In this document: positions 4,223-5,128 of the stretch, in pieces | Layout: every line of letters starts with the position of its first letter | How positions within the stretch are numbered: the first letter of the stretch is position 1 | Source: a virus | Virus record (IMG/VR): IMGVR_UViG_3300034257_000053 | Location: 5,486 to 69,485 of that record | Direction: 5' to 3' (one strand) | DNA length: 64,000 bases | Translations under genes and position numbers: made by a program | Notes under the pieces: model-generated | The model's database searches: none | The model's input: only the letters and a program-made list of their open reading frames with translations | What the model was told of the DNA's origin: nothing

Positions 4223-5128
4223 ATGAACAAAGCCACCAATCCAACCGCCGCCGCATCGGCCCTGACCAAGGCCGATCCGACGAGTCCCGCGCTCATCGTC
4301 ACCGGTCGCGATGCGATCGCGATCAAGGCCGGAACAGTTTTTGCCGGCCGCACCTTCGCGGAACAGACCGCGGTGGAGATGCCCTCCGCAGGCCTGACGG
4401 CAGGCACGGACTACGCCGTGATCGTCGATGCGACGACCGTCCGCGCGGAGCCGCTCACGGTCGTGCCGGTGAGCGAGACCTGCCTCGGCGGCTTCCATTT
4501 CGCGCCAGGCGGTAACGCGGCCGCGCGCTCCGGTGGTGACGACATTCCGGCGATCAATCCGTTCTCGTGCTGGGATGTGAACTTCCGGCCGGCATGCCTC
4601 GATCCGCGCGGCATGACGCGGGTCGATGGACCGCTGGGGACGTTCTGGTCCGACATCTACCTGCTCGCATCCGATCACCTCGCGAACGGCACCAGCCGGC
4701 TCGGCGTCACCATCGCCGACGGCAACGATCCGCCGGAAAACCCCAAGGGCGGCCGTTTCAAGAAACTCGACTACGCGACCGCCGTCGCGGTGATGGCGCA
4801 TCACGGCAAGGGCCTGCACGGTCCCGAGGAGTTTTTCGCCGCGGCCTACGGCGTGACGGAACTCACCGTGCACGACGGCGATCCGAAGGTGACCAAGCTC
4901 GATGCGCCGCGCACCAGCAAGTGGGGCCTGATCCAGCCGGCCGGCAATCTCTGGCAGTGGGGCCACGACGGCGATCCTGACAAACCGCGCGCTTCCTTCT
5001 TCGGCGGCTCCTGGTGGTTCGGCGGCGGCGCCGGCTCGCGCTGCGCGAACGTCGCGTACGGCTTCCCCGACGACTCGAACGTCCGCATCGGGGCGCGCGG
5101 CCGCGGTGATCACCTGCAACTTGCTTAG
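4223..5128 (+). CDS. mtd: DGR target protein, Mtd-like C-type lectin fold
   Basis: GGFHFAPG, WDVNFRPACLDPRGMT, FWSDIYLL, TSKWG..Q..GNLWQWG, FGGSW...GSR and GARGRGDHL match recalled BPP-1 Mtd; AGGAGG RBS. Confidence 0.93.
   Translation: MNKATNPTAAASALTKADPTSPALIVTGRDAIAIKAGTVFAGRTFAEQTAVEMPSAGLTAGTDYAVIVDATTVRAEPLTVVPVSETCLGGFHFAPGGNAAARSGGDDIPAINPFSCWDVNFRPACLDPRGMTRVDGPLGTFWSDIYLLASDHLANGTSRLGVTIADGNDPPENPKGGRFKKLDYATAVAVMAHHGKGLHGPEEFFAAAYGVTELTVHDGDPKVTKLDAPRTSKWGLIQPAGNLWQWGHDGDPDKPRASFFGGSWWFGGGAGSRCANVAYGFPDDSNVRIGARGRGDHLQLA
4985..5109 (+). repeat. DGR variable repeat (VR) with G/C tract at 5089-5106 leading into IMH
   Basis: 125 bp gapless match to 5564-5688 with 11 mismatches, all at TR adenines. 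Confidence 0.98.

Follow-up and report, generated by a model that had tools for sequence, protein, structure and literature searches.

The soil phage analysed here carries, at 4223-6913 of the window, a complete BPP-1-type DGR composed of target, Avd, TR and RT, and its 301-aa target is an Mtd core without the N-terminal domain Mtd_N. The window is the whole stretch of DNA that was analysed, 64,000 nucleotides corresponding to bases 5486-69485 of a linear record (CheckV completeness, 93%). The anchor-less Mtd core was shown to be the native form of a large clade in temperate phages mostly of Bradyrhizobium-type hosts, and not a one-off truncation. In this clade the cassette was also shown to be surrounded by replication, DNA-methylation, ParB and integrase genes, independently of the type of head and tail modules present. 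As the attachment domain was lost and the gene lies among replication and methylase genes, the target may not be an ordinary tail-fibre tip. An intracellular binder and a virion protein docked in some way appeared about equally likely as its role.

The DGR cassette and signs of mutagenesis

The cassette contained the following features.

4211-4216, + strand: Shine-Dalgarno AGGAGG, 6 nt 5' of the target ATG, read from the sequence
4223-5128, + strand: DGR target, 301-aa Mtd core without Mtd_N (beta-sandwich and C-type lectin fold)
4985-5114, + strand: VR, 130 nt, final stretch of the target coding part; direct repeat with 5564-5693 at 90% identity
5128-5147, + strand: inverted repeat with an 8-bp stem (one G-T) and a 4-nt loop GACA, just 3' of VR
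5163-5561, + strand: Avd accessory gene, 132 aa (Pfam bAvd PF22296, E 1.4e-24)
5564-5693, + strand: TR, 21 adenines in 130 nt, repeat match to VR
5885-6913, + strand: DGR RT (Pfam RVT_1, E 1.4e-17)

The target ORF at 4223-5128 was the longest possible reading, with an in-frame stop upstream. The RT ORF was open from 5558 to 6913, with the ATGs at 5885 or 5903, just downstream of the TR, as likely starts, and the RT showed 64-78% identity to the RTs of 50 related cassettes. VR differed from TR at 13 positions, 11 of which were TR adenines; the other two were both located at the 3' end (5110-5111), and the two repeats diverge from there on. The same bias was seen family-wide, as an in-frame VR matching the TR was present in 63/63 targets from 45 loci, with 725 of the 794 VR/TR mismatches at TR adenines. 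Judged from these traits of the sequence, the locus was shown to be an intact and recently active DGR. When the target DNA was searched against the whole record, the only matches were the target itself and the TR, indicating that the fibre carries no VR, as had been claimed in the original prediction. The record therefore has a single VR, and the target is the sole variable protein and sole DGR target of the phage. Mtd is likewise the sole target in BPP-1, a likeness that counts against an intracellular role.

The inverted repeat lies where BPP-1-type DGRs carry a GC-rich inverted repeat, according to the available text of Wu 2018. The energy of this hairpin (MFE -8.6 kcal/mol) was not significant by itself, as z was only -1.28 and 20 of 200 shuffles folded equally well. 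Among peat metagenome contigs over 3800-7300, one full-length contig with 0 VR variants was found, such contigs being blind to rare alleles and to expression. The search of sequencing runs listed one DNA run with a match, a peat metagenome that may be the source, and no RNA run. The near-identical locus pairs (L047/48/49, L054/55, L051/52, L019/46 and L034/68) were 100% identical across their shared DNA, so that no in-situ VR turnover was visible from these pairs.

The target is an Mtd core lacking the N-terminal domain

BLASTP aligned residues 12-300 of the target with residues 55-380 of BPP-1 Mtd (381 aa, L004:5839-6984) at 42% identity (E 7e-63), and the start at about Mtd residue 55, as given in the original prediction, proved exact. 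Phmmer against the PDB Mtd chains gave an equivalent match of residues 11-300 to Mtd 54-380 (E 3e-54). At E<=0.01, Pfam detected mtd_2nd (PF21916) alone, at residues 26-118 (E 3.9e-8, 34 bits against a cut-off of 24.6). The VR-bearing C-terminal C-type lectin domain was present, with the alignment extending to Mtd residue 380. Residues 9-300 also matched positions 70-392 of the 393 positions of PHROG 11262; the label of this family, 'tail protein', counts against an intracellular role.

The absence of the N-terminal beta-prism, also predicted, was confirmed by profile search. The Mtd_N profile (PF18454) matched nowhere in the 69.5-kb record at E<=10, whereas the positive control BPP-1 was detected with 63.9 bits (E 7.5e-19); an intact Mtd_N, named beforehand as a finding that would speak against the prediction, was thus not detected. 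Mtd_N was above cut-off in 0/33 related records, and is rare in the wider family too (2 of the 89 N-extended representatives). In Mtd the prism spans residues 1-48 and the sandwich 49-170; the Pfam models, the alignment to Mtd 55-380 and the BPP-1 control were used here in place of these boundaries. The start of the target was shown to be the exact point where fibre-fused relatives join shaft to tip, and the protein consequently has no virion-anchoring N-terminal part. In the first 40 residues, the highest 15-residue Kyte-Doolittle mean was 1.02 and no hydrophobic stretch was found, in agreement, as far as hydropathy is concerned, with the claim that no signal peptide is visible.

The expected likeness to Mtd was also borne out by the predicted structure. 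The AF2 model of the target (pLDDT 86.9, pTM 0.87, residues 1-10 of low confidence) retrieved Mtd (1yu3/1yu0) as the top Foldseek match (E 1e-26, TMq 0.82), followed by formylglycine-generating enzymes at E about 0.08. A three-copy model scored 0.42 against 0.04 for the best control, with one of the three runs at 0.00; the runs agreed in at least 35% of contacts, the partner pLDDT was at least 86, and the interface was formed by residues 102-279. In the calibration of this score, the mark was reached by 20 of 30 solved pairs and 1 of 23 single chains. The pass probably came from likeness to the solved Mtd trimer, and it is in the model only that the target would keep an Mtd-like trimer via its lectin domains.

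Genomic setting of the cassette

The genes surrounding the cassette were as follows.

18-635, + strand: methyltransferase
862-1758, + strand: DNA methyltransferase (phrog_56)
1755-3035, + strand: replication-initiator-like gene, 426 aa (phrog_270, E 1e-5, a weak match)
3367-4179, + strand: 270-aa gene (phrog_6836), ending 43 nt 5' of the target
6910-7137, + strand: 75-aa ORF with its ATG overlapping the RT stop (ATGA); no Pfam or PHROG match
7134-9473, + strand: C-5 cytosine DNA methyltransferase, 779 aa (Pfam PF00145, E 1.6e-19)
10733-11566, + strand: methyltransferase
11925-12710, + strand: methyltransferase
14003, + strand: primase
15718, + strand: DnaB

The same-strand methyltransferases, primase and DnaB agreed with the predicted location of the cassette among replication and methylase genes, and the RT stop (6911-6913) indeed overlaps the start of the next gene at 6910. 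The family of the C-5 cytosine methyltransferase was present in 13/20 related genomes. The designation of the region as a putative early operon follows from its gene content. The scan of 1-20000 gave 0 promoter-like sites, along with 8 terminator-like sites against 12.7 expected by shuffling. The baseplate genes begin at 41276 and 42795 and the fibre gene at 49047, corresponding to a linear distance of 36-44 kb from the target, so that the claimed distance of about 36 kb held for a linear genome. If the genome is circular, the target is reached from the end of the endolysin gene (60103) after about 13.6 kb and whatever DNA is missing, instead of after 36 kb. The phage is of the myovirus type, as it carries a sheath gene.

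Anchor-less Mtd forms constitute a clade

The homologue search gave 1470 matches; among the best 120, 110 were 280-320 aa long and none had a Pfam family other than PF21916. At most 15 residues preceded the core in 29 of the 126 informative clusters at 50% identity. In a tree constructed by FastTree only, with a midpoint root and with 31 of 151 candidate rows left out because of incomplete cores, 29 of the 30 anchor-less rows fell within one starred 40-row set. The anchor-less forms of about 300 aa came mostly from Bradyrhizobium-type bacteria, and one homologue was named in Bradyrhizobium brasilense. No match to the family was obtained in the search of a plasmid collection, so the family appeared tied to phages, which we counted against the intracellular reading.

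We considered whether the target could be a decaying remnant, that is, a truncated mtd without a function of its own carried by a mobile DGR cassette, in view of its reduced length relative to Mtd and its position away from the tail genes. The 116-member family alignment, however, had 24 invariant and about 80 nearly invariant columns with consistent starts, although the first 10-20 residues were variable across the homologues. The in-frame VR with adenine-biased change in every target, the confidently modelled fold, and the large size and age of the clade, with its 29 clusters at 50% identity, also argued against decay. This explanation is close to refuted because the family is conserved, and we regard it as very improbable.

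Two homologues (P0048 and P0068) possessed an N-terminal extension resembling ribbon-helix-helix (Atlas feature score 0.80), with structural alignments over residues 40-78 at TM 0.36-0.43. It was rejected as a general feature, being found in no other of the 268 proteins compared and at 0/66 loci, and may be a gene-calling fusion.

Neighborhoods of anchor-less and N-extended forms

The genes flanking the anchor-less clade (141 neighbours at 52 non-redundant loci) were most commonly phrog_2045, clamp, RusA, integrase, ParB, helicase, methyltransferases and primase. The 25 commonest of the 122 neighbour PHROGs included no tail or head family, a limit that leaves room for rarer tail families near the clade. 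This was the outcome of the neighbourhood survey of N-truncated Mtd homologues proposed originally, and it went in the expected direction. Phrog_2045 also matches the record's own 355-aa gene, and a protein representing the most frequent flanking cluster belongs to Pfam DUF5131. For the N-extended relatives (124 neighbours at 51 loci), the top families among the 25 commonest of 175 were central tail fibre J, tail fibre, tail spike and host specificity. Tail genes were retained as neighbours even by BPP-1-type forms with a short anchor, an extension of 43-44 aa (3 of these 51 control loci). The neighbours in viral loci were called by GC3-based gene calling with PHROG and Pfam tallies, and the caller failed to detect several targets where the locus had 57-61% GC. 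Neighbours below 100 aa (44 of 185 in the anchor-less set) were dropped, as were six N-extended proteins above 1300 aa. Loci that were duplicates or fragments were removed (10 and the window from the anchor-less set, 7 from the N-extended set), and BPP-1's own record was excluded from the N-extended tally.

One protein family thus offers a natural contrast, with N-extended forms in tail modules and anchor-less forms among replication, methylase and integrase genes. The same comparison also contains evidence that the target is still a virion receptor-binding protein serving classical tropism switching from an unusual gene position. Besides adjoining tail genes, the N-extended representatives retained mtd_2nd in 89/89 cases, some with virion-anchoring N-terminal domains; the domains found among the 89 were T7 tail-fibre N (1), BppL_N (2), Collar (1) and collagen (1). 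The target itself is homologous to Mtd across both remaining domains and is the only target of an active DGR. Its strong Shine-Dalgarno would suit an abundant protein. In the published view, as given in the available text of PMC5758913 (category 'a'), Mtd-domain targets are tail proteins. Such a protein would be attached to a fibre or baseplate protein by non-covalent docking, via the apex of the beta-sandwich or the short variable N-terminus, whose 10-20 residues could be docking peptides fitted to each tail, and the cassette would simply occupy an accessory region at a distance from the tail genes. The lack of an anchoring domain, the absence of tail families from the 25 commonest neighbour families at the 52 loci, and the tail-gene neighbours kept even by the short-anchored forms argued against it.

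Head and tail modules of related phages and the search for a docking partner

In 20 near-complete related genomes, the DGR cluster alone was present in 20/20, followed by primase (15), Avd (14), MT-A70 (13), C5-MTase (13) and protease (11). Recognisable tail genes were found in 15 of these genomes, and the DGR was 14.5-39.9 kb away from them in 15/15; none of the 20 genomes had a member of the DGR cluster inside a recognised tail module. The genomes contained two portal/TerL/MCP sets. Among 33 related records, homologues of the window's sheath were present in 5, of its TerL in 13, and of its fibre in 2, both weak. The anchor-less clade therefore occurs in phages with different tails. Both the distance from the tail genes and the association of the cassette with at least two unrelated head/tail module sets, with no structural family common to all, argue against a docked receptor-binding protein.

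No candidate adaptor co-occurring with the target was detected in the 20 genomes, which is weak negative evidence on docking; the clustering accepted alignments from 60 aa or 50% coverage upwards at E<1e-5, and a short docking motif could escape it. The window contained no homologue of BPP-1 Bbp9 or Bbp10, and the absence of Bbp9 in particular also argued against docking in the manner of a receptor-binding protein. Of the three large fibre-like proteins, those at 49047-50660 and 46545-48839 gave no match in a PDB sequence search, and that at 44115-46475 matched pyocin PA0619 (Tri2) alone. With the evidence on both sides considered, a docked receptor-binding protein is a serious possibility, though one that we regard with some doubt. 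If it is correct, no recognisable adaptor would be needed for the attachment of Mtd cores to unrelated tails.

The target might instead act extracellularly or on the particle outside the fibre tip, as a capsid or tail decoration or as a soluble trimer freed at lysis. It might then bind host surface material, for example avoiding adsorption to debris or loosely tethering particles. The retained surface-ligand-binding fold is consistent with this. So is the apparent lack of a secretion signal, as lysis or transport on particles would then be the only ways out of the cell. The available text of PMC10743442 describes tentaclins, other phage DGR targets, which were proposed to be non-fibre virion adhesins. 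On the other hand, nothing like a capsid-anchoring domain was found by Pfam, and the gene lies outside the head module: 18 of the 20 genomes had recognised head or packaging genes, and the DGR was 6.5-36.6 kb from them in 18/18. Free release would also uncouple the VR genotype from its benefit, so that selection on VR alleles would be weak. We thus consider such a role rather improbable.

Possible role of the target

Phage DGRs are textbook tropism switches. To our knowledge, a few papers on gut phages hint at non-virion DGR targets, none of which has been tested. The reading that we tentatively prefer, while holding it somewhat short of probable, is that the target is a hypervariable binder that works inside its host cell during infection or lysogeny. 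It would be uncoupled from the tail, produced together with the replication and DNA-modification genes, and would act as a free trimer within that cell. Its most plausible role would be in phage-host or phage-phage conflict, for example in sequestering a variable host defence protein. A VR allele would be expressed in the very cell that contains the genome encoding it, and would therefore be exposed to selection in the same way as the allele of a receptor-binding protein. A more specific form of the idea is unlikely in our view, namely that a clade of temperate soil phages turned a tail-fibre tip into an antibody-like cytoplasmic binder of variable defence or rival-phage proteins. In this form the anchor-less trimer would neutralise the proteins that it binds, its DGR would diversify it continually, and its expression would coincide with that of anti-restriction methylases; if true, no hypervariable counter-defence system would have been known before from a virus of bacteria.

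Several points weigh against the preferred reading of a free intracellular binder. Mtd is a proven fibre-tip receptor-binding protein, and at 42-52% identity function is usually kept. We know of no experimentally proven example of a whole DGR kept for an intracellular binder. The gene position amounts to guilt by association, as DGR cassettes may lodge in permissive accessory regions. Mtd binding is weak per site and needs multivalent display on the virion (available text of PMC2408619), and a free trimer would lack that avidity. The hosts of the clade include cultivable Bradyrhizobium, which makes DGR diversification of non-virion proteins directly testable.

Comparison with known systems

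Phage DGR targets that are non-structural and lie beside methylases have been published before, so that the idea has more precedent than the original prediction implied. According to the available text of Benler et al. 2021 (PMC8008677), a distal DGR target of Quimbyvirus ('Quimbyviridae') is 'nested within defense-related genes', by adenine and cytosine methyltransferases. It has a C-type lectin domain, lies away from the structural module, and was proposed to have a role in phage-host conflict. Roseburia phage Shimadzu has an active DGR target outside the tail gene, with VR2 in orf43/44, and selection during infection was weaker on VR2 than on the tail VR1 (available text of Cornuault et al., bioRxiv 10.1101/575076). 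VR2 is a second target beside the tail target, in a Firmicutes gut phage, and is likened to the present one by description only. The targets nd4_tgt2 and nd12_tgt2 are small single-domain C-lectin proteins whose authors assume Mtd-like action. Unlike the present target, they have no beta-sandwich, carry DUF6273 and show no detectable Mtd similarity, and a tentaclin is present in their cassettes as a second target (available text of PMC10743442). The literature search, supplementary tables aside, found no paper on anchor-less Mtd homologues in replication/methylase regions of alphaproteobacterial phages, a negative limited by Table S1 of PMC5758913 and the target clusters of PMC8144416, which may list members of the clade.

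Among the closest relatives are the N-extended Mtd-core tail-fibre proteins of uncultured phages in IMG/VR (400-1100 aa; IMG/VR has 563 Mtd-core loci in all), which have the same beta-sandwich and lectin core as the target at 42-63% identity (many at 48-52%) and mostly possess their own Avd and RT. They carry 70 to more than 800 extra N-terminal residues, a few with tail-type domains, and the target lacks these. The BPP-1 DGR (mtd-avd-TR-brt; Mtd 1YU0-1YU4) has the same order of target, Avd, TR and RT, and the inverted repeat 3' of VR in the present phage may correspond to that of BPP-1. At 42% identity over Mtd residues 55-380, the target differs from BPP-1 Mtd in the absence of residues 1-54, the Mtd_N beta-prism. 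BPP-1 is short-tailed, with mtd directly after the tail-fibre gene bbp9, whereas the present phage is of the myovirus type, with its cassette between replication and methylase genes. Compared with Quimbyvirus, a Bacteroides phage of the gut whose target is not described as an Mtd homologue in the available text of PMC8008677, the target found here is a clear Mtd relative. The distal target of Quimbyvirus is a second, remote one, the first being by the tail-fibre genes (PMC8008677, available text), while in the present phage the whole cassette and its sole target are located in a non-structural region.

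DGR cassette and genome map

The linear record (69,485 bp; completeness 93% by CheckV), of which the window covers bases 5486-69485, carried all parts of a DGR.

Features of the DGR cassette
4223-5128, +, target ORF, 301 aa (ORF reading)
4985-5114, +, variable repeat (VR), 130-nt direct repeat (repeat comparison)
5163-5561, +, accessory protein bAvd, 132-aa ORF (Pfam, E 1.4e-24)
5558-6913, +, reverse transcriptase RVT_1 (RT) ORF (Pfam, E 1.4e-17)
5564-5693, +, template repeat (TR), second copy of the 130-nt direct repeat (repeat comparison)

The alignment of the repeats detected 13 differing positions, of which 11 were adenines in the downstream copy (TR, 21 adenines in total) and the remaining two lay at the 3' end (5110-5111). 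The target with its VR, Avd, TR and RT is a canonical DGR with past activity. An inverted repeat (5128-5147, 8-bp stem and 4-nt loop) after the target stop codon occupies the site where BPP-1-type elements have theirs, and its folding energy alone was not unusual. The DGR was also active across the clade: in 45 related loci the VR matched the local TR in all 63 targets, and TR adenines accounted for 725 of the 794 VR/TR mismatches. At least two tandem or nearby targets consisting of the Mtd core alone, referred to here as anchor-less, were present in 18 of these 45 loci, every VR matching the single TR. Examples are the related viral loci L009 (9986-11878) and L047 (8163-10052); the window phage has one target only.

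Gene map of the record (PHROG/Pfam)
Record start to window ~19 kb, +, DUF5131-like gene (phrog_2045), five DNA methyltransferases, weak replication-initiator match, DGR, primase, DnaB
Window 18-635, 862-1758, 7134-9473, 10733-11566 and 11925-12710, the DNA methyltransferases
21.9-30 kb, -, gene block with beta-clamp among its members
From 31 kb, +, neck protein, TerL, portal, protease, major head protein, baseplate
From 31 kb, +, three large fibre-like proteins, sheath, tape measure, tail protein, endolysin

On the linear record the baseplate genes lay 36 kb downstream of the DGR, so that the map agreed with the original prediction, which had placed the cassette among replication and methylase genes at about this distance from the baseplate module. 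If the genome circularises, the distance from the endolysin onward to the DGR would be about 13.6 kb, to which any missing DNA has to be added. As the scan for promoters and terminators did not exceed chance, we infer the "early" status of the DGR region from its gene content.

The five methyltransferase genes belong to different PHROG/Pfam families and sit within about 13 kb around the DGR; that at 18-635 is part of a 569-aa gene which starts in the bases before the window (4411-6120 of L003, a piece of the same record including the upstream bases). For the 270-aa gene immediately before the target (3367-4179), no Pfam family and only a weak match to a function-unknown PHROG were found; by eye, its C-terminal 60 residues appear helix-turn-helix-like. 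The 43-nt gap before the target holds a perfect 14-nt GC palindrome, CCCCGCCGGCGGGG (4183-4196), preceded by T6-G-A4; read on the minus strand this is a hairpin followed by a T-run, yet no minus-strand gene ends there. In a 786-aa tail protein (44115-46475), residues 395-485 matched the R-type pyocin baseplate protein PA0619 (Tri2, 6u5b; E 3.8e-11), and the approximately 390 residues before the match had no explanation.

The target is an Mtd core without Mtd_N

The target had been predicted to start at about residue 55 of BPP-1 Mtd, lacking the N-terminal part. Indeed, BLASTP aligned residues 12-300 with Mtd 55-380 (42% identity, E 7e-63), and the PDB Mtd chains aligned in the same register. 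The sole Pfam match was mtd_2nd (residues 26-118), and PHROG family 11262 "tail protein" was matched from profile position 70 on. A profile search for Mtd_N (PF18454) found no match across the whole record even at E<=10, while the identical search scored 63.9 bits in BPP-1. No upstream extension of the ORF was possible, and a strong Shine-Dalgarno sequence was present. The AlphaFold2 model (116 homologues as input; pLDDT 86.9, pTM 0.87) was uncertain only at residues 1-10 and the VR loops 265-286, and Foldseek with this model returned Mtd structures (E 1e-26, TMq 0.82). The ORF, homology and model results together demonstrated that the initial observation was correct in all checked details: the sole target of the window DGR is an anchor-less Mtd core. 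The target may form a trimer, as the three-copy model scored 0.42 against 0.04 for the best control (0.00 in one of three runs), with the interface in the lectin half; since Mtd trimers have already been solved, this score indicates likeness, not proof.

Architecture of the protein family

A word-indexed search detected 1470 homologues. Among the best 120, 110 had a length of 280-320 aa, PF21916 or no Pfam family was assigned, and the named sources were Bradyrhizobium, Rhodopseudomonas, Xanthobacteraceae, Pseudolabrys and Rhizomicrobium. The homologues share a consistent start ("MN...") and 10-20 variable residues before a common KADP..PAL.VTG motif, which aligns with Mtd residue 55 onwards. 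When the 50%-identity representatives were searched exhaustively, 483 clusters matched at E<=1e-3; of the best 150, the 126 whose alignment began within the first 30 query residues were tallied.

Residues before the core (clusters)
<=15: 29
16-35: 5
36-70 (BPP-1 size): 4
71-150: 22
151-300: 42
>300: 24

Pfam detected mtd_2nd in all 89 N-extended representatives, those with extra residues before the core, and Mtd_N in only two; others had CBM_5_12, DUF2793, BppL_N, the T7 tail-fibre N-terminus, Collar or collagen. These domain contents and pre-core lengths indicated that the Mtd core is a module usually fused to a longer N-terminal part, with tail-type domains there in a few representatives. 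Among anchors the BPP-1 prism is rare, and forms without an anchor are a major class. In a FastTree tree built on the core regions, one well-supported 40-row set contained 29 of the 30 anchor-less rows; the anchor-less clade is both large and conserved.

Of the "extended" rows nearest the window, at least one resembles a fusion with an upstream gene: in P0122, a 594-aa homologue, a ParB-like N-terminal half is followed by a full anchor-less target. Whether a gene-calling or a real fusion, it reflects the ParB adjacency seen among cassette neighbours. Two other homologues, P0048 and P0068, have a basic N-terminal extension of 80-90 aa that appears ribbon-helix-helix-like (DNA-binding), a lead only; it had an Atlas score of 0.80, and structural alignment matched residues 40-78 with CopG-type proteins. 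This type of extension was not found in the other stored proteins nor in the 66 related loci, and may represent either a true fusion or read-through in gene calling.

Gene neighbourhoods of the anchor-less and N-extended forms

The 66 viral loci with close relatives of the target were examined by tblastn, with 36 proteins of the window as queries. Homologues of beta-clamp, methylase, DnaB and replication initiator adjoined the cassette, which in many cases had two targets in tandem. When flanking families were taken from our own gene calls, clustered and named by Pfam, MT-A70 flanked cassettes in 22 loci, DUF5131 in 21 and beta-clamp in 13; DUF2303, ParB-HTH, SSB, AAA ATPase, GapR, D5 primase, N6/N4 methylase and integrase were also common. 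The DUF5131/phrog_2045 gene was the commonest immediate neighbour (upstream of the window at L003:767-1834, and in 21 related loci), often directly after RT or before the target.

The PHROG tally of the anchor-less form covered 141 neighbours (genes of >=100 aa within two positions) in 52 non-redundant loci. Its 25 commonest families, with phrog_2045, clamp, RusA-like, integrase, ParB-like, helicase, methyltransferases and primase among them, contained no head or tail family. For the control, IMG/VR was searched with aligned N-extended relatives; this yielded 563 matching stretches, and 80 of these were retained. Central tail fibre J, tail fibre, tail spike and host-specificity families predominated in the control tally of 124 neighbours in 51 loci, where the target had at least 27 extra N-terminal residues. 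This survey, proposed in the original prediction, indicated that, within one family, lacking the N-terminal part is associated with a location away from the tail module.

Independence from virion type

When the window structural proteins were searched in 33 related records, homologues were found for sheath in 5, fibre in 2 (both weak) and TerL in 13; Mtd_N was above the cut-off in none of the 33. Gene content was compared among 20 records with a completeness of 90% or more, the window's own among them. The DGR cluster was the only one present in all 20, followed by primase (15), Avd (14), MT-A70 (13), C5 methylase (13) and prohead protease (11). In these records portal, TerL and major head protein came in two different sets (phrog_21/15/29 and phrog_12/9/10), and the tape measure in several families. 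The DGR lay 14.5-39.9 kb from the nearest recognised tail gene (15 records with one recognised) and 6.5-36.6 kb from head or packaging genes (18 records). Additional targets were 2-10 kb from the cassette, always outside recognised tail modules. Whatever the tail type, the replication/methylation/integration region is the fixed site of the cassette.

Possible role of the target

The original interpretation was partly supported: its structural part, the position of the Mtd_N-less form away from tail genes, holds in the loci surveyed across the clade, and the hypervariable fold may act inside the cell or dock on the virion by an adaptor. From indirect evidence we tentatively favour a free intracellular binder, because the anchor was lost across the whole clade, the non-structural position is invariant and no partner co-occurs with the target; the protein would bind a partner inside the cell, serving phage-host or phage-phage conflict. 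A virion receptor-binding protein docking by unspecified means is an almost equally probable alternative. It is favoured by the 42-52% identity of the target to proven and N-extended fibre-type forms, by its being the phage's only DGR target, and by the dependence of Mtd on multivalent display (PMC2408619). A decoration or lysis-released binder seems unlikely, and a relic very improbable.

Comparison with published systems

Most viral DGR targets have been classed as tail proteins (PMC8144416), and the beta-prism is presumed to serve fibre attachment (PMC10743442). Non-structural phage DGR targets are already in print: in Quimbyvirus, methyltransferases and other counter-defence genes surround the distal target (PMC8008677), and Shimadzu VR2 is a second example (bioRxiv 10.1101/575076). 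A published description of the anchor-less Mtd clade was not found in the literature, supplementary tables aside. What is new here is the tie of a non-structural DGR target to Mtd ancestry, together with the link between architecture and genomic context within one family, obtained with a control. The non-structural gene in Quimbyvirus and Shimadzu is a second target beside a tail target, whereas in the window phage the whole cassette is displaced with its only target, which is likewise new.
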